A stretch of 64,000 nucleotides of DNA from Parcubacteria group bacterium (GCA_041657845.1 JBBABD010000001.1:14255-78254); one strand, 5' to 3'. Shown: positions 3,889-64,000, counted from the first letter of the stretch. Numbers and translations are program-made. Notes: generated by a model from the letters alone, not told the origin.

Positions 3889-3898
3889 TACCCGTCAT

Positions 3899-4010
3899 GT
3901 CATTCCTGGCTTGACCAGGAATCTACGCCGTCGGATTACACTAGTCTTGATATTTATACATTAAGCTTGTGATTATCGTTTGTGTAGATTCCTGCTTTCG
4001 CAGGAATGAC
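3899..4010. repeat. MITE-like ~110-bp element, copy A, with 28-bp hairpin-forming terminal inverted repeats.
   Basis: The left end is 'gtcattcctggcttgaccaggaatctac' and the right end is 'gtagattcctgctttcgcaggaatgac'; each end is itself a stem-loop. The element is homologous to the reverse complement of 36495..36604. Confidence 0.7.
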
Positions 4011-4020
4011 AAAAGATTAA

Positions 4021-9890: not shown

Positions 9891-11459
9891 ATGAAAAGCA
9901 ACCTCGCCAAATCAGCTTTGTGGGTTACGTTTTCGGAGATATTGTTCAATCTCTCCGGTTTTGTGATTCACTCTGTTTTGGGAAGATTTTTGGGGCCGGC
10001 AGATTATGGAAGATACGGAATCATCATCACGCTTACAACGATGGTTATCATTCTGATTGGAAACGGAATTCCGACCGCCATGGCCAAATATATCAGCGAA
10101 TATTTTGAAATCAATCCCAGAATGGTAAAAACGATCAAGAAACAGGCGATTGTTTTGCAAACTATTATCATCGGAGGAATAACAATTTTATTTTTCTTTT
10201 CCATTCCCCTCATCTGCAAAGCGCTTGGCGATCCGACTCTTATTCCGCTATTTAGAATATCCACGCTAATAATCCCCGCTTTCGCCGGTGCTTCTTTCTA
10301 TTTTTCATACTATACCGGCCTTCACAGGTTCAATCTGCAAGCCACTCTCAAAACACTCAGATCGATTTTCCGAATAGTATTTGTCATCGGACTGGCTTAT
10401 TTTTGGAAAGTTGAGGGTTCGATTGTTGGATATATTATAGCTCCCGGAGGCGTTTTTTTGGTAGCTTTTTTGATTGATAAATTTTACATTGGGCCAAAAC
10501 TCAAAAAACAAGAAGAATTGCAAAAAAATATAGCTAGCGATAATCGTTCGGGATCCTTCGCCGCGGCGGCTCAGGATGACGTAAATTTTGACTGGCGAAA
10601 ACTTACCAACTACGCTTGGCAAATTGTTGTATTCTTTTTGGCCTATGAACTTTTGATCAGCATTGACCTATATTTAGTAAAAGCAATTCTCCGAGACGAC
10701 AATTTGACCGGAATTTATAACGCTGCGCTCACTGTTGGACGAATTCCCTATTATATTTTCTACGCTATGACAATTTTTCTCCTTCCCATGGTTTCTAAAT
10801 CCACCTCCCAAAATAACCCGGAAGAAACCAAAAAAATCCTCGCTCAATCGCTCAGAATTATGCTGCTCCTCCTCGTTCCAATGATCGTCCTTATGTCAAT
10901 TTATGCCAAACCGATTTTAATTGACTTCTACGGCGCAAAATATGCCCTTGGGGCGTTTCCGATGTCGATCTTGGAATACGGCATCGGATTTTTGACTATT
11001 TTCTATGTAATGAGTTTCGCCCTGAACGGCGCCGGAAAAACAAAAATGGTAATGAAAATATCAATTGTCGGTTTTTTGATAAACGCAATTTTAAATTATA
11101 TTTTAATCAAAAAATATTCCATAACCGGATCGGCTATCGCCACTTCCATTGCCTCTTTTATTGTCGCTATTTGGATACTATATTATTTGTGGCGTGATTT
11201 CGGAGCTTTGATAAAAATAAAAACATTTTTGAAAACAATTTTCGCCGCAGCGCTAATGTATTTAGTCTCGCTGTTATTTTCAAAAGGAGAAATAGCCTTT
11301 ATTGCTTGGTCGATTATTCTTTTCGTTTTCTATCTTTTTGTCCTATATATCTTAAAAGAAATCAAGAAAGAAGATCTGGAAATTGTCAAAACATTGATAT
11401 TCAGAAAGAAAAAAGAAGAAGTAGAACAAGAATTATCCGGGAATGAGCCTAGCGCTTGA
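9891..11459 (+). CDS. Wzx-like polysaccharide biosynthesis protein / lipid-linked oligosaccharide flippase (MOP superfamily).
   Basis: 522 aa with ~14 TM helices. The N-terminus 'SALWVTFSEILFNLSGFVIHSVLGRFLGPADYGRYG' is typical of the Polysacc_synt family. Confidence 0.7.
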   Translation: MKSNLAKSALWVTFSEILFNLSGFVIHSVLGRFLGPADYGRYGIIITLTTMVIILIGNGIPTAMAKYISEYFEINPRMVKTIKKQAIVLQTIIIGGITILFFFSIPLICKALGDPTLIPLFRISTLIIPAFAGASFYFSYYTGLHRFNLQATLKTLRSIFRIVFVIGLAYFWKVEGSIVGYIIAPGGVFLVAFLIDKFYIGPKLKKQEELQKNIASDNRSGSFAAAAQDDVNFDWRKLTNYAWQIVVFFLAYELLISIDLYLVKAILRDDNLTGIYNAALTVGRIPYYIFYAMTIFLLPMVSKSTSQNNPEETKKILAQSLRIMLLLLVPMIVLMSIYAKPILIDFYGAKYALGAFPMSILEYGIGFLTIFYVMSFALNGAGKTKMVMKISIVGFLINAILNYILIKKYSITGSAIATSIASFIVAIWILYYLWRDFGALIKIKTFLKTIFAAALMYLVSLLFSKGEIAFIAWSIILFVFYLFVLYILKEIKKEDLEIVKTLIFRKKKEEVEQELSGNEPSA

Positions 11460-33354: not shown

Positions 33355-33428
33355 AAACAGAAGCTTGACTTTAATAATTATGGTGTTAAAATACACATAT
33401 ACATTAATAATTATGGTGTTAATTATAT
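33355..33428 (+). promoter_or_regulatory. Putative sigma70-type promoter with flanking direct repeats upstream of the AAA ATPase gene.
   Basis: 'ttgact' is followed by a 16-nt spacer and 'taaaat'. A 19-bp direct repeat 'ttaataattatggtgttaa' occurs twice, overlapping the -10 element and the start codon. Confidence 0.3.
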
Positions 33429-34668
33429 GATAGATATTCGCAGAAAATTATTCGATGAATTGAAGAATAACCTTAAAACAAAGGAAATTTTACTAATTGT
33501 TGGACCTCGCCAAGCCGGAAAAACAACCTTAATGAACAAACTCCGGATTTTCCTTGAGGAAAAGGGAGAAAAAAGCGTCTTTTTGAATTTGGACTTTGAA
33601 AAAGATGCGGCTTCGTTCGTTTCCCAAGATGCTCTTGTTAGAAAATTAGAATTGGAATTAGGAAAAGAAAAAGGGTTTGTTTTTATAGACGAAATTCAAA
33701 GGAAAGAAAATGCCGGACTTTTTTTGAAAGGAATCTACGATATGGAATTGCCATACAAATTCATTATCTCCGGTTCGGGAAGTTTGGAGCTTAAAGAAAA
33801 AATACATGAATCTCTGGCTGGAAGAAAAAGAATATTTGAACTTTCCACGGTCAGCTTCGAAGAATTTGTTAATTTTAAAACTAACTACAAATACAGCCAA
33901 AAACTGAACGATTTTTTTTCCATTGAAAATGAAACATCATTGTCTCTTTTGAATGAATATCTTAATTTTGGAGGATATCCGAGAGTCATCCTAGAAAGCA
34001 TGCTCGCGGAAAAAAATAGGACTATCAGTGAAATATTCAGAAGCTACACCGAAAAAGATATCGCCTATTTTTTAGGAGCAAACAAGATCGAAAAATTCGG
34101 ATTGTTAATAAAACTTTTAGCCGACCAATCCGGAAAAATTATTAACTATTCGGAATTGGCCAAAGAAACAGGAATAAGTTTTCAGACGTTGAAAAATTAT
34201 CTTTGGTATGCTGAAAAAACCTTTTCTATTCGGACAATATCACCGTATTTCAAAAACAAACGCAAAGAAATAACCCGTTCTCCGCTAGCATATTTCTACG
34301 ATTTGGGTTTTAGAAATTTCTCGCTAGGGTTATTTGGCAATCTTGCTCAACCAGACCAGCTTGGATTTGTTTTTCAAAATCTTGTCGCAAACAGACTGCA
34401 TGAAAAAATAGCAAATACTGCTAAAAACTTGGGTTTCTGGAGGACACTGGATAAAGCCGAGGTTGATTTCATAATTAGTGAGGGGAAATCAGCTCTTCCT
34501 GTTGAAGTAAAATATTCACGGCTTAAAAAGCCTCAAATAACCAGATCTCTTGGAAATTTCATAAAAGCATATTCTCCCACTGAAGCTTGGATTGTAAATT
34601 TGACTTTAGAAACAGAAATAAAAATAGAGAATACAACAGTTAAATTCATACCTTTTTACAAATTATAA
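33427..34668 (+). CDS. AAA+ ATPase (AAA_14 / DUF4143-type ATP-binding protein).
   Basis: It has the Walker A motif 'LLIVGPRQAGKTTL' and Walker B motif 'FVFIDEIQ'. The C-terminal domain is typical of DUF4143. Confidence 0.65.
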   Translation: MIDIRRKLFDELKNNLKTKEILLIVGPRQAGKTTLMNKLRIFLEEKGEKSVFLNLDFEKDAASFVSQDALVRKLELELGKEKGFVFIDEIQRKENAGLFLKGIYDMELPYKFIISGSGSLELKEKIHESLAGRKRIFELSTVSFEEFVNFKTNYKYSQKLNDFFSIENETSLSLLNEYLNFGGYPRVILESMLAEKNRTISEIFRSYTEKDIAYFLGANKIEKFGLLIKLLADQSGKIINYSELAKETGISFQTLKNYLWYAEKTFSIRTISPYFKNKRKEITRSPLAYFYDLGFRNFSLGLFGNLAQPDQLGFVFQNLVANRLHEKIANTAKNLGFWRTLDKAEVDFIISEGKSALPVEVKYSRLKKPQITRSLGNFIKAYSPTEAWIVNLTLETEIKIENTTVKFIPFYKL

Positions 34669-36450: not shown

Positions 36451-36494
36451 CGGAGTTATAAGATTGGGACTTACGCATTTTAAATAATAATTAT

Positions 36495-36604
36495 GTCATC
36501 CTGCGAAAGCAGGAATCTACGCAAACGATAATTGAGAGTTTAACGTGTAAATATCATACTGGCGTAATTCGATAATGTAGATTCCTGGTCAAGCCAGGAA
36601 TGAC
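36495..36604. repeat. MITE-like element, copy B, inverted relative to copy A.
   Basis: The reverse complement aligns to 3899..4010. The terminal hairpins are identical apart from one indel, and the internal ~55 bp is ~75% identical. Confidence 0.7.
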
Positions 36605-36644
36605 AACCAAACGCGTAATTTATAAAAATTATAAAATTTTCAAG

Positions 36645-37221: not shown

Positions 37222-37617
37222 ATGAGGAGAGATGAATTAATTTACTCTGATTTGTCTTATGAAATATTCGGCATATTATTCAAAGTCCAAAATGAATTAG
37301 GCAGATATTGCAATGAAAAGCAATATGGAGATTCTATAGAAGAAAAATTAAAAGAAAACAAAATTAGCTATGCGAGAGAAAAAACATTGCCAGTGTCGTT
37401 TGAGGGAGAAAAGATAAACAGAAATAAGGTTGATTTTATCATAGAAAACAAAATAATATTAGAATTGAAATGCTCCAATTTCACTACTAAAGAAAATTAC
37501 TACCAATTAAGAAGATACCTTTCTGCATATAATTTGAAACTTGGAATTTTAGTAAATTTCAGGGATAAATATCTAAAACCAAAAAGAATATTAAATTCAG
37601 AATGCAAAGAGTATTAA
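37222..37617 (+). CDS. GxxExxY-family protein (PD-(D/E)xK-like small protein).
   Basis: 131 aa. 'ELGRYCNEKQYGDSIEEKL' and the C-terminal 'LKLGILVNF' fit the family. It is flanked by inverted repeats. Confidence 0.5.
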   Translation: MRRDELIYSDLSYEIFGILFKVQNELGRYCNEKQYGDSIEEKLKENKISYAREKTLPVSFEGEKINRNKVDFIIENKIILELKCSNFTTKENYYQLRRYLSAYNLKLGILVNFRDKYLKPKRILNSECKEY

Positions 37618-47271: not shown

Positions 47272-47905
47272 GCCAAAGGCGGTGGCTTGATGAATAGGGT
47301 CGCCTCAAAGGCGATCAGCCTTCATCTCACGCTTAGGTGTTAATTAATTAGCTTTTGTTAATATTTATCGTCTTCTTCTTGCTGTTCTCTGATATATTTT
47401 TGATTATCTCTTCGTCGAATCCGATGGTTAAAACTGCATATCCTCTTGCCCAGAAATGCGCTCCGGTGTAATTTCTGTCTTTTTCTCCCATCCTTGCGAC
47501 TGCAATAGCGCTTTTCCCTTTCATGAATCCGATAACTGAGGCTACGGCATATTTGGGCAGGATTTCAATACACATGTGGACGTGGTCTTTGGTGAGATTT
47601 CCTTCGGTGATTTTGCTTTCTTTCTGCTCTGCCAGTTCGTGGAGGATTTTTGCCAGTTCTGTCCTGATTTTACCATAGATTACACTTTTTCTTTTCTTGG
47701 GTATAAATATTATATGATATTTGCAATTCCATTTTGAGTGAGATAAACTTTGATAGAGATTAGGCACAATATTGTTAGTGAACGAAGACTCTTTATCAAG
47801 CCAAGTTCATTATACATTATTGTGCCTTTTTTCTTGTGGTTGCGGCAACGGTAAAACCTTTTCGAGTCTCACTAGTAGAACTAGCGGTTTACCTTCTGGG
47901 AAAAA
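47272..47905 (-). mobile_element. IS200/IS605-family insertion sequence (tnpA only).
   Basis: It contains a Y1 HUH transposase. The subterminal sequences are GC-rich and imperfectly palindromic ('gccaaaggcggtggc', 'gcctcaaaggc', 'aggcacaata...tattgtgcct', 'ctagtagaactag'). The boundaries are approximate. Confidence 0.6.
47348..47767 (-). CDS. tnpA: IS200-like Y1 transposase TnpA.
   Basis: It has 'DHVHMCIEI' (HuH) and 'GAHFWARGY' (catalytic Tyr). Its length is 139 aa. Confidence 0.85.
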   Translation of the reverse strand: MPNLYQSLSHSKWNCKYHIIFIPKKRKSVIYGKIRTELAKILHELAEQKESKITEGNLTKDHVHMCIEILPKYAVASVIGFMKGKSAIAVARMGEKDRNYTGAHFWARGYAVLTIGFDEEIIKNISENSKKKTININKS

Positions 47906-52498: not shown

Positions 52499-52654
52499 TT
52501 TTTATTCAGCTCGTACAACATATTTTATATCATAACTTTAATTTCATACTATTTCAATCCAGTCCAATTTTCAAATAGAGCATACTTTTATAATACTCCC
52601 AATACCGCTCCGCACCATAAGCACTTAAGTTTTATAAAATTATTTCTATACGAC

Positions 52655-52700
52655 TATTCCTCAAAACTCTCCAGATATTCCGGAAACTTCAAAATTTGAT
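52655..52700. repeat. Degenerate copy of the cassette-boundary core repeat.
   Basis: 'ctccagatattccggaaacttcaaaat' versus 'ctatccaaatattccggaagtttcagaat'. Confidence 0.35.
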
Positions 52701-52777
52701 ATTTTTATTTGCCAGCATATTAAATAATTTTAAATTCCAAATTCTAAAAGATTATACCTGTACCGAACTATTGTAGC

Positions 52778-53290
52778 TTATTTCTTTATTATTTTCCAGT
52801 ATCCGCCCTTGTCGGAACCGACTCTTTCGAGCAATTCTTTTTCCTTAAGTTCAGTTATATTATTTCTTACATTTTTTTCATTAATACCTATCTTTAGACT
52901 TAATTCTCTTTGTGTGATGGCTTTATTTTTATTTATTTCAGAGAGTATCTTTTTCTGGTTTTCTGAGAGCCCCAAGTTTTCTAGGTCTTTTTCTAGGTCT
53001 TTTGTTTCTCTTTTTTTGAAAGAAACAACAAAAGCGCCCGTTTTTTCTGAAAAATCAGGCAGCTTGTTCCCATTTTTTTCACACTCTTCAATCGTATTTT
53101 TTCCAACCTGAATTTCATTCGTAGTACCATCATCTTTCATTCCAACGATAACCTTACCGCCTTTTTTATTAGCAAAGGCGCAAAGAGCAATTATCGCTTC
53201 TTTCCACTCGGAAAAAGATGATTTCAATTCAATTTTTTCAGATTCTTTCAATTTCATATAAATTTTTTGATTTTCGAAATTAATTTTCAA
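52778..53290 (-). CDS. AlbA_2 (Schlafen-like) domain plus winged-HTH protein; putative regulator or defence-associated DNA-binding protein.
   Basis: The N-terminal 'ALCAFANKKGGKVIVGMKDDG' block and the C-terminal wHTH 'ITQRELSLKIGINEKNVRNNITELKEKELLERVG' are present. Confidence 0.45.
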   Translation of the reverse strand: MKINFENQKIYMKLKESEKIELKSSFSEWKEAIIALCAFANKKGGKVIVGMKDDGTTNEIQVGKNTIEECEKNGNKLPDFSEKTGAFVVSFKKRETKDLEKDLENLGLSENQKKILSEINKNKAITQRELSLKIGINEKNVRNNITELKEKELLERVGSDKGGYWKIIKK

Positions 53291-53325
53291 AACTATCCAA
53301 ATATTCCGGAAGTTTCAGAATCCAT
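53277..53325. repeat. Cassette-boundary core repeat (variant 2), copy.
   Basis: 'aaattaattttcaaaactatccaaatattccggaagtttcagaat' matches 54965..55010 exactly. Confidence 0.6.
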
Positions 53326-53469
53326 TTTGCCTGCTCGGGATAGAAAAGAAATCTTTCCACATCTTTCACTGCCTGTTTCAAATCGCTTTTTTCGGCTTGT
53401 TTTTTCAAAAATAAACATATATTCATTCTATCAAATAAACACTCTTTAACACTTAACTATATATGATCT

Positions 53470-53547
53470 ATGATATAATTTCCCACCATTCCACCGTATT
53501 CTTTGATCCTTCTTCAAAATTAACTTCCGACTCGTAGCCAATCCATT
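53470..53547 (-). pseudogene. Relic of the 3' end of the NAD-dependent epimerase gene (duplicate of the 56300..56375 region).
   Basis: The minus strand encodes '...KIKWIGYESEVNFEEGSKNTVEWWEIIS*', versus '...GFGYEPKINFEEGLKRTVEWWKTL*' in the intact gene. Confidence 0.6.
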
Positions 53548-54243
53548 TTATTTTTCGTTTTCCCTCATTATTTTCAGAAGAAAAAGCGTATCCGTCCGGA
53601 GTTTTGCCCGAGCCCAGTCTTTTTTTGGTTCGGAAAGCATTTCACCGAGGCCATCAAGAATATGACGATTATCCATTTTCTCCAACAACTCAATGCATCT
53701 TGTCAAAATTTCCTTATATGAAACTTTAGCTCGATCTTCAACTAATTTCTTATTTATCGGCCAAATATTTTTTGCAAAAAAATACACATCATAAACATCC
53801 CGACTAGTCTTGCCAATTCGCTCATACATTGCCATCAGCTTATTGGCAAACATATCTTCCTTGACCATTATTAGCATTGGGATGCCAAGAAGTGTTTCCG
53901 GTTCGTATTTTGATCCAAAATCACGACAGTTTACCTCGATTTTGATGTTTTGAGATTTCTGATCATATGAAATAACTGTAATAAGATTAAACCGCTTAAT
54001 TCTTGAATCAATTACCTTGCCATAACCAGCAACTATTTTTTGAATCTTTTCAAACACTTCCTGCTTCTTGCTTTCGTCCAGCAAATCTAAATCAATATCA
54101 ACAGAATCGCGATCCAATCCGTAAAACATCAAAGCAGCCGTACCGCCCTTAAATCCCAAAAATGGAGCTATTGATGTGTCAGAAAAAATATCTTTCAAAA
54201 TTTGCAACAAGATATTTTTATGTTTTGGATAATTGATGGTCAT
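53548..54243 (-). CDS. AbiEii/AbiGii-family nucleotidyltransferase toxin (type IV TA, DUF1814).
   Basis: It has 'FLGFKGGTAALMFYG' (the conserved GGTAL block) and 'DSVDIDLDL' (nucleotidyltransferase DxD). There is a 4-bp ATGA overlap with the upstream gene. Confidence 0.65.
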   Translation of the reverse strand: MTINYPKHKNILLQILKDIFSDTSIAPFLGFKGGTAALMFYGLDRDSVDIDLDLLDESKKQEVFEKIQKIVAGYGKVIDSRIKRFNLITVISYDQKSQNIKIEVNCRDFGSKYEPETLLGIPMLIMVKEDMFANKLMAMYERIGKTSRDVYDVYFFAKNIWPINKKLVEDRAKVSYKEILTRCIELLEKMDNRHILDGLGEMLSEPKKDWARAKLRTDTLFLLKIMRENEK

Positions 54244-54854
54244 TTTGCTTGGTTATTTGATTTATTTTCTTCATAGTGTTCAAAATATTCCTGAACTTTT
54301 TTGTTCATTCTTTTATTGCTATAGATTGGCAAAATTTCAAAAACTTTATCCCAATCCAAAACATCCAAATGATCGAAATGATAATCCTTACTAACATATA
54401 TTCTGTCCAAAAACGCGCGCTCTTTTGTCGCGGTAGCCACATTGCCCTGTTGCTCAATCCCGCTCGTGCTACTCAAAACATAATCTTTCATTTTGACAAA
54501 ATTTATTTTTTGTCCATCAATTTCAATCTCTCTGGTAATATAGGAAGCCACAAAGATGTTTCCATAATATTGGAAATTAATTCCTGCTCGAGTTAATATG
54601 GTTTCAAAACTGATATACGCGGGGGTATAAATCCGCGTTGCCAATTCATGACGATCATAATTAGTATCTTTGGCATAAATACCGTGGCGAACCCTGATTA
54701 ATTTTCCTCTTTTAATGTAATCACTCAATCTTACGCGAACCGCGCTTCCTACCTTTTCACCCCATAACAAAGCAACATCTTTTGTGGAAAAGATGGTTTT
54801 TTGAGATCGTAATATAGTCTCAATATATTCACCCTTTGCAGGTTTTTTATCCAT
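54240..54854 (-). CDS. AbiEi-family antitoxin / transcriptional regulator (N-terminal wHTH).
   Basis: It is translationally coupled upstream of AbiEii. The N-terminus 'ILRSQKTIFSTKDVALLWGEKVGSAVRVRLSDYIKRGKLIRVRHGIYA' fits the AbiEi wHTH. Confidence 0.5.
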   Translation of the reverse strand: MDKKPAKGEYIETILRSQKTIFSTKDVALLWGEKVGSAVRVRLSDYIKRGKLIRVRHGIYAKDTNYDRHELATRIYTPAYISFETILTRAGINFQYYGNIFVASYITREIEIDGQKINFVKMKDYVLSSTSGIEQQGNVATATKERAFLDRIYVSKDYHFDHLDVLDWDKVFEILPIYSNKRMNKKVQEYFEHYEENKSNNQAK

Positions 54855-54924
54855 ATTATTACTGATAGTTAGCTTTAAGCTTACTATCAGTTCTATTATA
54901 CTAAAAAATGCACTCTTGTCAAAT

Positions 54925-55015
54925 TATATTCCCTTCCGCCATTCCACCGTCTTTTTCATCCCTCCTTCAAAATTAATTTTCAAAACTATCCAAATATTCC
55001 GGAAGTTTCAGAATT
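54925..55015. repeat. Second relic of the epimerase 3' end fused to the variant-2 core repeat (cassette boundary).
   Basis: 'ccattccaccgtctttttcatccctccttcaaaattaa' is followed by 'ttttcaaaactatccaaatattccggaagtttcagaat'. The minus strand reads 'NFEGGMKKTVEWRKGI'. Confidence 0.6.
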
Positions 55016-55180
55016 AGTCCGGATATTCACATTGAAATTCAGTCAAAAGTTCCTTAAATTATTCCAAAAGAATATTAATAAAAATTATCCGCCGTTATTG
55101 ATTTTGACCTTTACTCACACAAATATATTACTTTTTTAGCATTGAATGCATAAAAAGATATATCCAATTATACATACCGA

Positions 55181-56212
55181 TCATTTTTTCAACTTATAAT
55201 AAGTCGCTTTTCCTCTGCCCATTTTCTCAATGATACCCAATCCTATCAATTTCCTAAAATCAAGATTTCTTGTCGGTTTGGCTCTATCGGTCAATTTTGC
55301 ATAATCACGATCACTGATATACTCATTCTCTTCTATGAAATTAATAATCTTTCTATGATGATCTCTCAGGTCTTTTTCCAAAGGAACAGCCTCTTGTTTC
55401 ATCTCTTTACTCACCCTAAGCAATTCATCAATAATTCCATCCGTAAAATACTCGAGCCAGGAAGTGAAGTCGATTTGATCTTTGATTTCATAATAATTTC
55501 CAAACAAACCAACTTCTTGAAAATATTTACTGACATTTTTGTTATAATAATTTTCAAAACTGAAAAGATTGAAAGTATTAAGTCCCATCTTCGCTAAAAG
55601 CACCTTAGTTGTCAAACGAGCTGTTCTTCCATTGCCATCAATAAAAGGATGGATGATGACAAATTGTTTGTGAAAAATTCCAGCCAAAATCAAGGGATCA
55701 ACTGTGTTTTTGTTTTTTTCGATATAATCAAGCAATTCTTGCATTAATTTTGATACTTCCTTATGTTCAGGAGGAAGATAAGCAGTCTGGCGAGTTTTTG
55801 GATTATTAACAAAAACCGGCTCTTGTCTCAATTTTCCAGAGCGATATTTCTCAATCAAGCCTTGCGTTATTGTTTCCTGAATTTTCAAAATTAATGGCAA
55901 ATCAAAAACTCGTTTTTTATTTTTAATTGAATCATTCAATTCAACCAATGCCTTATTATAATTCAAAACTTCTTTTTCGCTATCGCGAATATGTTCCGGC
56001 CTAGTTTTCAAAATTCTTTTGACATCGGTCAGTGGCAATGGATTGCCTTCAATGCTCGTTGAAGAAAAAGCTGAAACCTCTCTAGCTCTTTTTTCAAGCT
56101 CCGCCAAAACTAGCCCCGAAAAATTCCGACTGTTTAAATCGACAATAATTTCAGTTATTCTCTTAATATTGCCTAATAATAGATTGGAAATGGTATATTT
56201 TGGATTAAACAT
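55181..56212 (-). CDS. Fic/DOC-family protein (AMPylator-type) with a C-terminal wHTH.
   Basis: The canonical Fic motif 'HPFIDGNGRTARL' is present, with a C-terminal 'IGLGIIEKMGRGKATYYKL'. Confidence 0.8.
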   Translation of the reverse strand: MFNPKYTISNLLLGNIKRITEIIVDLNSRNFSGLVLAELEKRAREVSAFSSTSIEGNPLPLTDVKRILKTRPEHIRDSEKEVLNYNKALVELNDSIKNKKRVFDLPLILKIQETITQGLIEKYRSGKLRQEPVFVNNPKTRQTAYLPPEHKEVSKLMQELLDYIEKNKNTVDPLILAGIFHKQFVIIHPFIDGNGRTARLTTKVLLAKMGLNTFNLFSFENYYNKNVSKYFQEVGLFGNYYEIKDQIDFTSWLEYFTDGIIDELLRVSKEMKQEAVPLEKDLRDHHRKIINFIEENEYISDRDYAKLTDRAKPTRNLDFRKLIGLGIIEKMGRGKATYYKLKK

Positions 56213-56234
56213 ACTTTATTCAGATTATCTTATA

Positions 56235-56270
56235 TAGACGTATTATAGACGTATTATAGACGATTGTCAA
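56235..56270. repeat. 11-bp tandem repeat x3 upstream of the Fic gene.
   Basis: 'tatagacgtat tatagacgtat tatagacgat'. Confidence 0.5.
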
Positions 56271-56299
56271 ATGCTTAAAAAATCTTACCTACCTATTAA

Positions 56300-57244
56300 T
56301 TACAGCGTTTTCCACCACTCCACCGTCCTTTTGAGCCCTTCTTCAAAATTAATCTTCGGCTCGTATCCGAATCCTTTTTTGGCTTTCAAAACATCGGCGT
56401 GGGTATGACGAACATCGCCCAGCCTCGGTTTTCTTTTTTCCAGTTCAATTTTCTTTCCGGAATATTTTTCAATCAGTTTTTTCACCTCCAAAAGATTGGT
56501 CCTTTCTCCGTGGGCAATATTGAAAATTTCTCCCATAAATCTTTTTTTGGCTTGCATCGCCAGAATATTGGCATTCACCACGTTATCAATATAACAAAAA
56601 TCGCGAGATTGCTTTCCGTCTCCTTCCAGAAATAATTTTTTCTTTGCCGGCCGATAAAGTCCCGTCAGCCAAGCGGAAACCACAGTTGAATACGGAGAAT
56701 CTCCGTATTGCCCCGGACCGAAAACATTAAAATAGCGCAGGCACACTGTGTCCAAGCCATACAGTTCCCCGAACATTTCGCACATCAGCTCATCGGCATA
56801 TTTTTCCAGCGCATACGGCGATTTCGGATTAGCCGGATTTTCCTTTTCCTTGGTCGGAAGAATTTTCGCCCCGCCATAAATCGAAGAAGAGGAAGAATAA
56901 ATCACTCTTTTGATTTTGTAATCACGGCATTTCTCCAGAATCATCGCCGTTCCTCCGATATTATTTTGGACAGTCTTGGCTGGATTTTCCACGCTAAAGC
57001 TGACTCTTGGAATGTAGGCAAAATGAAAAACGTATTCAAATTTGTGCTTCTTAAAAATTTTGTCCAAAAATTTTCCATCGCACATCGAGCCTTCATAGAA
57101 AACTATGCTCTTCGATACCGCATCCCTTCTTCCCGTTGCAAAATTATCAATCCCCACAATTTCCGCTTTGGGAAATTTTTTTCGAAATTGCTGGGAAAAA
57201 TTACTGCCGATAAAGCCCGCACATCCCGTGATTAATACTCGCAT
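56300..57244 (-). CDS. NAD-dependent epimerase/dehydratase (extended SDR; UDP-sugar 4-epimerase or UDP-GlcA decarboxylase-like).
   Basis: It has 'MRVLITGCAGFIGSNF' (Rossmann) and 'SPYALEKYA' (the S...YxxxK catalytic triad block). Confidence 0.8.
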   Translation of the reverse strand: MRVLITGCAGFIGSNFSQQFRKKFPKAEIVGIDNFATGRRDAVSKSIVFYEGSMCDGKFLDKIFKKHKFEYVFHFAYIPRVSFSVENPAKTVQNNIGGTAMILEKCRDYKIKRVIYSSSSSIYGGAKILPTKEKENPANPKSPYALEKYADELMCEMFGELYGLDTVCLRYFNVFGPGQYGDSPYSTVVSAWLTGLYRPAKKKLFLEGDGKQSRDFCYIDNVVNANILAMQAKKRFMGEIFNIAHGERTNLLEVKKLIEKYSGKKIELEKRKPRLGDVRHTHADVLKAKKGFGYEPKINFEEGLKRTVEWWKTL

Positions 57245-63457: not shown

Positions 63458-64000
63458 TTATAAATTGGCTATTTTTGATCTTAAAAAAGAGTAAAACTCC
63501 TCATTTTTCGCCGTTTGGGTGGAATACTGCTCAAGGGCTTTTTTGCGAGCCTCAGCACCCATTCTGGAACATAGTTCTGGACTCAAAATCAGCCTTTCCA
63601 GCTTGTTTATCCAATCGCTGGTATCAGACGCCACAAAGCCATCGAGGCCGTCGGAAATGGCTTCTTTGAAGGTTCCCGTAGCGCTAGCCACCGTCGGAAC
63701 ACCTACGATTCCCGCCTCAAAAAACTTGAGCTGGGACTTGGATTCGCAGAAAGGATTTCCTATCTCAAGTGGAGCCAGATTGATGTCAACTTGGGAAATA
63801 TTTTCAAAATGCTTGTTTCTTGCAACGTATGGCAATTGTTTGATTCTATCTTTAAATTTGTTCAATTTACTTTCAATATCCAATGGTCCAACCAAAAATA
63901 ATTCCACATTGGAATGTTTTTCCATAATTTCCAAAAGCGCATCGGTTATCACCGCAAAGTCTTTGTTGTGACTGATGGTACCCGAGAAATAACCGAGCGA
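63458..64000 (-). CDS. GT4 glycosyltransferase, C-terminal portion. The gene continues beyond the window end.
   Basis: 'KSQLKFFEAGIVGVPTVASATGTFKEAISDGLDGFV' is the GT4 C-terminal E..E block. The frame is open to position 64000. Confidence 0.55.
   Translation of the reverse strand, partial: SLGYFSGTISHNKDFAVITDALLEIMEKHSNVELFLVGPLDIESKLNKFKDRIKQLPYVARNKHFENISQVDINLAPLEIGNPFCESKSQLKFFEAGIVGVPTVASATGTFKEAISDGLDGFVASDTSDWINKLERLILSPELCSRMGAEARKKALEQYSTQTAKNEEFYSFLRSKIANL

Follow-up and report, generated by a model that had tools for sequence, protein, structure and literature searches.

The 64-kb window analysed here (the whole stretch of 64,000 nucleotides from an ultra-small bacterium of the Parcubacteria group, within the candidate phyla radiation or CPR; G+C content, 35%) is almost entirely a cell-surface glycosylation and polysaccharide locus, in which Pfam scans recover numerous transferases (GT1, GT2 and PMT_2) together with flippases, methyltransferases, UDP-glucose dehydrogenases and a radical-SAM enzyme. 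On its minus strand, the gene for an NAD-dependent sugar epimerase/dehydratase (57244..56300; Pfam Epimerase, E=3.5e-56) is followed by a Fic gene, the AbiEi and AbiEii genes, a short gene with AlbA_2 and winged helix-turn-helix (wHTH) domains and two membrane-protein genes. This work concerns the array that these genes form with two families of short direct repeats, one consisting of copies of the epimerase 3' end (E1-E3) and the other of copies of a second 'core' sequence (A1-A3), all of them on the same strand. The original prediction had read the array as successive site-specific insertions into one gene end, each displacing the older ends downstream in the manner of integron cassettes. 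Our results show that the repeats are fossils of genes and not recombination sites, and we consider it rather probable that they are scars left, without any dedicated recombinase, by insertion-duplication, unequal recombination and deletions in a small island of defence and toxin-antitoxin genes, itself part of an extensive, much rearranged and hypervariable glycosylation locus.

The Fic module extends from its -35 box to its stop codon (56272..55185), with the promoter at 56270..56242 and the gene at 56212..55181. The protein is SoFic-like (Pfam Fic, E=4e-20; PADLOC SoFic, E=6.7e-49), and its translation contains the motif HPFIDGNGRTAR, which conforms to the HxFx(D/E)GNGRxxR pattern of the family. 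Three tandem CGTCTATAATA units occupy the promoter region (56232-56272) and overlap the -10 box. They are kept in one related contig (L170), have left a remnant in another (L161), and probably represent a putative autoregulation operator of Fic.

In the AbiE module (54924..53548), the promoter (54922..54895) precedes AbiEi (54854..54240; PADLOC E=1.5e-58, profile positions 3-184 of 186) and AbiEii (54243..53548; E=1.3e-69, positions 3-226 of 231). The two genes overlap by ATGA, and the common orientation of the genes behind the epimerase is as had been described. A 32-nt imperfect palindrome, CTGATAGT...ACTATCAG (54908..54843), lies between the -10 box and the start codon. Every AbiE copy examined retains it, and it presumably serves as the AbiEi operator. 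Judged from sequence, the neighbouring genes for a wHTH antitoxin (AbiEi) and a nucleotidyltransferase (AbiEii), with a palindrome across their promoter, make this a predicted type IV toxin-antitoxin system. The Fic and AbiE promoters are the only two perfect (12/12) sigma-70 matches of the region. The AlbA_2-wHTH gene (53257/53290..52778; 159 aa from the ATG at 53257) had been counted as a third cassette of the same kind. That view is not supported: Pfam SLFN_AlbA_2 is matched over profile positions 1-68 of 118 only (HTH_24 is found with E=2.3e-8), and no promoter of comparable quality precedes it. Homologues of this gene are absent from all the relatives' loci examined, no database search having been made for it; 36-nt remnants of its 3' end are present in L161 and L177.

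The first repeat family starts from the resident gene. E1, the last ~26 codons of the epimerase (56379..56300), ends in GFGYEPKINFEEGLKRTVEWWKTL and stop. E2 (54981..54925) is a pseudo-copy of the last 17 epimerase codons, reads KINFEGGMKKTVEWRKGI and stop, is 85% identical in nucleotides to E1 and ends directly before the AbiE -35 box. E3 (53547..53470), which follows AbiEii, comprises the last 24 codons of an epimerase allele, WIGYESEVNFEEGSKNTVEWWEIIS and stop, with 81% identity to E1. Pairwise nucleotide identities within the family are 81-85%, epimerase homology begins at codon -17 in E2 and at codon -24 in E3, and all copies share the 12-nt block TTAATTTTGAAG, with similar sequence found after A1 and A2. 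Orthologues 88-100% identical to this epimerase exist in CPR metagenomes. E3 reads KWIGYE, with the Trp of the orthologue consensus (KKWFGYEP) where the resident gene has Gly (KKGFGYEP); E3 therefore comes from another allele and is not a decayed E1. Its tail, ...EIIS, resembles the ...EIS and ...KIS tails of other lineages and has no equivalent in E1. Beyond its stop codon, E3 continues as a larger unit (53547..53397) through an intergenic region into the start of an ATP-binding cassette (ABC) transporter gene (MFIFEKT, first ~6 codons, 53418..53397; ABC' below). This intergenic part resembles the one that follows the epimerase in the related contig L082 (local score 29, against 17.1±3.1 in shuffles), and the whole unit is the residue expected from a deletion between the epimerase and the end of the AbiEii allele (A) described below in an L082-like arrangement.

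The second family has its counterpart in the closest relatives sharing the epimerase (L001/L081 and L082, with 81% and 75% amino-acid identity in that protein, respectively). These carry an intact 268-aa AbiEii, allele A, only ~31% identical to the AbiEii of the window; its C-terminal stretch reads KDVERFLFYPEQAQWILKLPEYLESFENKRY and stop, and the L001/L081 protein ends in FLFYPEQAQWILKLPEYLESFENKRY and stop. In frame, the core of the window is the protein end ILKLPEYLDSFEN and stop, and its degenerate copy, ILKFPEYLESFEE and stop, differs by conservative changes only. Since it matches the ends of these intact AbiEii genes, the core is a fossil, the 3' end of an AbiEii gene formerly present, of which three remnants persist. 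A1 (55014..54966) retains the last 16 codons and the stop of A-type AbiEii and is fused directly to E2. A2 (53426..53280) is a 48-codon C-terminal remnant that carries a gene annotation (orf48), contains the 49-nt core at 53321..53273, and is joined to the ABC remnant at a ~10-nt microhomology, TTTTTGAAA, as read from the junction sequence. A3 (core copy at 52696..52661, remnant as a whole to 52655), carrying the degenerate end, is older and diverged. A1 and A2 agree in 48 of 49 nt and are spaced by 1,693 nt, A3 is 86% identical to them and 90% identical in nucleotides to the L081 AbiEii 3' end, and orf48 shares 77% of its amino acids and 80% of its nucleotides with the L081 AbiEii C-terminus. 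The att-like site that had been seen in the core is thus a coding remnant. A protein placed in one cluster with orf48 (P0243) was rejected as a clustering artefact, being an unrelated acyl-CoA dehydrogenase.

Both families lie where they had been reported, with three copies each, and self-BLAST of the whole window gave no significant direct repeats beyond them. An exact 36-mer of the core occurs twice in the window, against 0 expected in shuffles. These comparisons bear out the earlier view that the repeats are specific to the junctions and are not generic terminators or promoters. A related explanation would have selection maintain them for a regulatory function, as terminators, promoters or small ORFs, which the position of E2 directly before the AbiE -35 box and the annotation of orf48 as a gene could suggest. 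We hold this to be very improbable: the repeats are found nowhere else in the window, they are recognizable truncated coding ends of two gene families, Rfam has no match in the window, and a terminator scan of the repeats finds nothing except a weak stem in E1.

Contigs from sister strains show the same fragments in other arrangements. In L181 and L182, which are 98-99% identical to the window over the shared part and identical to a third contig (L175) over the stretch they have in common, the AbiEii stop is followed by E3, its intergenic region and ABC' (~6 codons), then by 48 codons of A, and then by a copy of E2 (E2*) that runs on into its own intergenic region (IG*), an intact ABC-transporter gene and further sugar genes. 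Over 134 nt, the stretch from E3 to ABC' is 78% identical to the corresponding stretch from E2* to the ABC-transporter gene of L182, so that these are two copies of one gene border. The E2 of the window departs from E2* after GAATGGCGGAA, where the AbiE module starts; the 'KGI*' with which E2 ends is therefore a junction product. This tail had been considered as the mark of an L081-type allele, a candidate that was dropped when L182 showed how the junction makes it. Variable gene content after this epimerase had been anticipated and is indeed seen among relatives.

The third contig, L175, is 1,514 nt long and 99-99.8% identical to the window, from which it differs by seven single-nucleotide polymorphisms in AbiEii and by the loss of one nucleotide from the core. 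Its order is AbiEii, E3, intergenic region, A (48 codons) and core, followed by E2 and AbiEi; that is, it leads from the end of the 1,693-bp unit bounded by A1 and A2 back to the start of that unit. This junction could be a circle or a tandem duplication arising by recombination between direct repeats, or equally an assembly path. The suggestion to look for circular junctions has hence produced one candidate, circular or tandem, that may prove to be an assembly chimera. In the sister strains (L175 761-955, L181 11-205 and L182 135-374) the 1-nt core deletion puts the AbiEii remnant and the epimerase-end remnant into a single reading frame, and the product, built from two gene fossils, is annotated as a 'hypothetical protein' of 64-79 aa.

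From one relative to another, the gene order around the epimerase is scrambled (window 57251 and 63473-64000; L081, L085, L163). In the window, the epimerase has the DUF2142/p244 block on its upstream side; in L081, this block is downstream of the AbiE(A) pair. The GT401 gene is found downstream of the epimerase in L081 and upstream of it in L085, and in the window 6 kb separate the two. The divergent promoter region at ~57251 is the exact site of one breakpoint. In L082, the C-terminal part of an IS3-type (rve) transposase is found just upstream of the epimerase (1-186).

Fic and AbiE are by no means confined to this locus. Homologues in CPR metagenomes number 5,584 for Fic and 4,211 for AbiEii; among the 120 best of each, identities are 73-85% and 77-92%, respectively, with almost constant lengths. 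We aligned the window to nine independent contexts (L161-L163, L165, L170, L173, L176-L178, L082). DNA homology for Fic is limited to 56272..55185 (L165, L170, L173), and for AbiE to 54924..53549, from the -35 box to the stop codon or near it (L161, L162, L163, L176-L178, L082), so that the left edge of each coincides with its 12/12 sigma-70 promoter. Outside these limits the flanks are unrelated between genomes, and the modules therefore carry no attC, attP or epimerase end of their own. From promoter to stop, Fic and AbiEi/AbiEii each form a self-contained module, and both are widely spread between CPR lineages. Their sharp edges mark the onset of purifying selection: as the coding DNA itself is only ~80% identical, neutral flanks would no longer be recognizable. 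In two contigs (L173 and L174), the same Fic gene and the 795 nt upstream of it (99% identical) stand beside different left neighbours, glycosyltransferases in one and FtsA/FtsZ in the other; a ~1-kb stretch upstream of this Fic has GC-rich hairpins and no called gene.

Self-comparison of the contexts revealed the same repeat-module-repeat footprint seven more times in related contigs, at targets that differ from one another. Around Fic, the repeat corresponds to the last 26 codons of a Bac_transf gene in L170/L171 (81% over the best-aligned 53 nt) and, in L165, to the 3' part of an HTH_17 gene with the intergenic region and the first 18 codons of a flippase gene (201 nt, 88%). Around AbiE, it is a host sequence without assignment in L165 (213 nt, 86%), the 3' end of another epimerase, sharing 32-33% identity with that of the window, in L177 (74 nt, 96%), and the DUF2142 5' end with the divergent promoter and intergenic region in L162/L178/L180 (135-168 nt, 92-96%). 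The 3' end of that same second epimerase surrounds a 54-aa ORF and an NYN gene in L161 (87 nt, 84%), and the 3' half of a YdjM-like gene surrounds a decayed AbiEi in L082 (221 nt, 98.6%). No repeat accompanies AbiE in L163 or Fic in L173/L174. Targets thus vary for Fic (epimerase, Bac_transf, HTH_17/flippase or no repeat) and for AbiE (two different epimerases, YdjM-like gene, DUF2142 promoter region or no repeat), and both neighbouring genes are intact at every repeat-flanked site. Differences between repeat copies at these sister loci fall on codon positions 1, 2 and 3 as [15,5,39] (binomial p~3e-7), and the L170 copies show nine synonymous and no amino-acid-changing codon differences in 17 codons. 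Because the differences concentrate at third positions, the copies must have diverged as functional genes in separate lineages and been united later. Incoming DNA brings with it a foreign copy of the gene border, which agrees with the replacement gene ends postulated at the outset and, at the epimerase itself, with the consensus Trp of E3.

These loci weigh on the main rival, in which elements without an integrase, similar to cis-mobilizable elements (CIMEs), entered the epimerase 3' end serially through a tyrosine or serine recombinase encoded elsewhere, each bringing a replacement end. The layout of full gene, module, gene-end copy, module and gene-end copy, in which E1-E3 flank Fic and AbiE, is what such accretion would leave; the gene-end copies seem to derive from different alleles, TTAATTTTGAAG recurs in E1, E2 and E3 with related sequence after A1 and A2, L175 could be an excised circle, and streptococci provide known cases of decayed elements accreting at gene 3' ends (PMC5704250). 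Yet the same modules sit elsewhere between unrelated flanks, at a Bac_transf gene, another epimerase, the 5' end of a flippase, a divergent promoter, a YdjM-like gene or no repeated target at all, the repeats vary in length from 49 to 221 nt and some of them take in 5' ends and intergenic DNA, the epimerase codon at which the copy begins is not the same in E2 and E3, and the unit of L175 is bounded by the AbiEii-remnant repeat and not by epimerase ends. No tyrosine or serine recombinase is encoded in the 64 kb. Furthermore, a search of 156 other loci with this epimerase (six-frame regular expressions, and tblastn with their own C-termini) found extra epimerase ends in none, returning only paralogous full-length epimerases. 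Since the flanks are unrelated and the target genes differ elsewhere, the modules have no fixed attP and are not specific to this epimerase, and we judge serial site-specific insertion to be unlikely.

A purely local history, in which the segment from epimerase to AbiE was duplicated in tandem and then decayed and lost parts without any foreign gene end, appears a little less likely still. A1 and A2 are near-identical, L175 is compatible with a tandem duplication, and the non-conservative substitutions of E2 and E3 are typical of pseudogene decay. However, E3 has the consensus Trp and the ...EIIS tail, both absent from E1, and the borders of E3 and E2* have diverged from one another while both keep the ABC-transporter start. 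A3 is nearer to L081 (90%) than to A1 and A2 (86%), repeat copies at the sister loci differ almost only at synonymous sites, and the modules have clearly spread horizontally.

We then consider the enzymes that could have moved these units. Of the 69 ORFs of at least 110 aa in the window, ~56 are main ORFs, the remainder lying inside larger ones; Pfam scans of these main ORFs found no tyrosine or serine recombinase and no IntI, in agreement with the earlier statement that none is encoded nearby. The sole transposase or recombinase gene of the window encodes an IS200/IS605 (insertion sequence) Y1 transposase (47767..47348, minus strand; NCBIfam transpos_IS200, E=7e-36), ~4.7 kb from the array. 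IS200/IS605 Y1 transposition produces no long target duplications and requires subterminal hairpins. Cross-genome alignments show no hairpins conserved at the ends of the Fic and AbiE modules. An integron-like array, or cassettes mobilized by this transposase, would account for compact units in a single orientation with a Y1 gene in the vicinity, but there is no IntI, attI or attC, the Fic and AbiE cassettes have perfect promoters of their own, the AbiE operator, which is part of its module, is the sole strong palindrome, and the module flanks are long target duplications. Either version is most improbable. The succession of insertions pushing older ends downstream that had been proposed is therefore broadly right, while the site-specific, integron-like mechanism attached to it, with neither an attC nor a fixed target, is unsupported.

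Nearly all spacer DNA of the array resolves into fragments of genes and promoters known from other island variants. The Fic 'tail' (55015..55180) is such a mosaic spacer, whose pieces T1 (55195..55121) and T2 (55098..55071) are found on either side of AbiE in L177. In L161, the 36-nt AlbA 3'-end remnant and then a Fic-promoter remnant lie directly upstream of AbiE. A 23-nt remnant of the window (52584..52606) matches, at 22 of 23 nt, a repeat from the 3' end of the different epimerase in L161 (2355-2377), a match that counts for little by itself. Microhomologies of 5-11 nt can be read by eye at the junctions: ~10 nt between ABC' and A2, an imperfect 5-6 nt between A and E2, and AAAAA between AbiEii and E3; such matches are easily found at 65% A+T. 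Mosaic spacers of this kind are what a streamlined genome would be expected to show after repeated rounds of insertion and microhomology deletion. Comparison of the left and right module spacers across genomes gave no common end motif, only mosaic fragments and a 13-nt GC-rich hairpin, CCGCCTCTGGCGG, that occurs next to modules in unrelated contigs (L170 2823-2835, L082 ~10385-10397) and may be a terminator or a motif like the repetitive extragenic palindromes. The sequence TTGAAAATTAAT was tried as a junction motif (15 matches with up to one mismatch, against 7±2.5 expected, and a further occurrence at a junction of L082) and rejected as too A+T-rich and post hoc.

Other elements of the window lie outside the array. 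A lone AAA_14/DUF4143 ATPase gene (33427-34668, plus strand) and a lone PDDEXK_3 nuclease gene (37222-37617, plus strand) stand amid the glycosyltransferase genes, and an AAA_14/DUF4143 gene stands beside AbiE in L161; these may be additional modules that stand alone and belong to the same mobile pool. No direct repeat is detectable around either gene in the window. An element of ~115 nt resembling miniature inverted-repeat transposable elements, with terminal inverted repeats TGTCATCCTGC...GCAGGAATGACA, is present in two copies (36491-36605 and 3898-4014) that are 84% identical, in opposite orientation, both in intergenic DNA of the glycosylation locus and without a match in Rfam.

In the recombinase-free process that we favour, DNA from a diverged relative would carry a module together with a copy of the adjoining host-gene border. 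Homology at this border would mediate insertion, by a Campbell-type single crossover of a circular fragment, by unequal homologous crossover, or by a homologous and a microhomology junction combined (homology-facilitated illegitimate recombination, HFIR), thereby duplicating the border and leaving both adjoining genes intact. Recombination between the new direct repeats could then loop out or duplicate units, and microhomology deletions would trim the non-functional DNA. Bacteria of the CPR are reported to keep homologous-recombination genes as well as DNA uptake through comEC and pili (PMC12455944), and HFIR is an established process (PMC3240628). We would place host recombination after DNA uptake at the centre of this scheme, and the order of events may have been as follows. 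From a starting state of epimerase, intergenic region, ABC transporter and AbiE(A), as in L082, an insertion or deletion would have led to E3-IG-ABC', A and E2*-IG-ABC in succession (IG, intergenic region), as in L182. The AbiE module would next have entered at epimerase codon -24, and recombination between epimerase-end copies could have generated the unit E2, AbiE, E3-IG-ABC' and A, whose junction is that of L175. Finally, this unit would have been joined through the 49-nt A core to a variant bearing Fic.

Several points weigh against this process. The shared block TTAATTTTGAAG can be read as a crossover core. E2 and E3 contain non-conservative changes (W to R, L to S/M), which implies some decay in place, and differences among E1-E3 by codon position are [7,2,9] (p=0.11), these copies being too short for an informative test. 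L175 is possibly an assembly chimera across a 49-nt repeat at low coverage. Repeats of 50-80 nt at 75-85% identity are a poor RecA substrate; the original crossovers must have relied on tracts of greater length or similarity than any now visible. The formation of the first circle or first duplication is left without explanation by the model. The recombinase scan covers 64 kb, and a recombinase acting in trans may be encoded elsewhere in the genome.

A more specific proposal, which we put forward as doubtful, is a complete cycle in CPR bacteria without any recombinase of its own: a defence or toxin module lying between duplicated host-gene borders would loop out as a circle of 1-2 kb, for which L175 is the candidate, be taken up by a related cell, insert by a single crossover at the orthologous border, thereby forming diverged gene-end repeats anew, and stack in tandem. 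Such a cycle has not been previously described as a natural mode of mobility. In a bolder version, an enzyme acting in trans, still to be identified, may catalyse loop-out and re-insertion.

CPR bacteria, or Patescibacteria, have tiny genomes with few classical mobile elements; even so, Fic and AbiE modules of this kind recur in thousands of contigs from many of their lineages, at 73-92% identity among the best hits listed. The scars at this locus and at the seven sister sites suggest that modules can move and accumulate among them without an integrase, riding on the borders of host genes and on host recombination, mostly in surface-polysaccharide loci. If this is general, diverged duplicates of a gene end around a promoter-to-stop unit would be a testable signature of recent gene gain in uncultured bacteria. 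For annotation, the array carries a warning: small ORFs such as orf48 are gene fossils.

The cargo families and the recombination processes invoked here are already known. The cargo matches the AbiE and SoFic families over the full length of their profiles, and these families describe the cargo only, not the formation of the array. What seems new is the recurrent natural occurrence, in several CPR lineages, of diverged gene-border duplicates around single promoter-to-stop modules, with a possible loop-out form. Compared with integron cassette arrays, the units are likewise compact, co-oriented and stacked, but there is no IntI, attI or attC, Fic and AbiE have their own sigma-70 promoters, and host-gene remnants lie at the junctions. 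The accretion of integrative and conjugative, integrative and mobilizable, and cis-mobilizable elements (the ICESt1/ICESt3 fda type; PMC5704250) is closer in layout, with a full target gene followed by units each bounded by a copy of its 3' end, incoming DNA that supplies the replacement end, and units without their own integrase. On the other hand, the units described here are single promoter-to-stop modules of 1.1-1.7 kb, found at many unrelated targets, and their repeats of 49-221 nt may span 5' ends and intergenic DNA with no shared crossover position, with no integrase found in the window. The 'minimal mobile elements' and core-gene-flanked defence hotspots of Neisseria (PMC3787668) are also small cargo between conserved genes without mobility genes, swapped by homologous recombination in a naturally transformable organism; theirs are double crossovers without duplicated gene ends, whereas here we find diverged border duplicates and tandem stacking. 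With HFIR and Campbell-type insertion-duplication in natural transformation (PMC3240628) the array would share, on our reading, homology on one side or segment, a possible microhomology at the other junction, duplication of the homologous segment and independence of a dedicated recombinase. Knowledge of that process comes mostly from constructs made in the laboratory in Acinetobacter, Streptococcus, Pseudomonas and E. coli, while the loci studied here point to a recurrent natural route for defence modules in CPR bacteria, with a possible loop-out form in L175.

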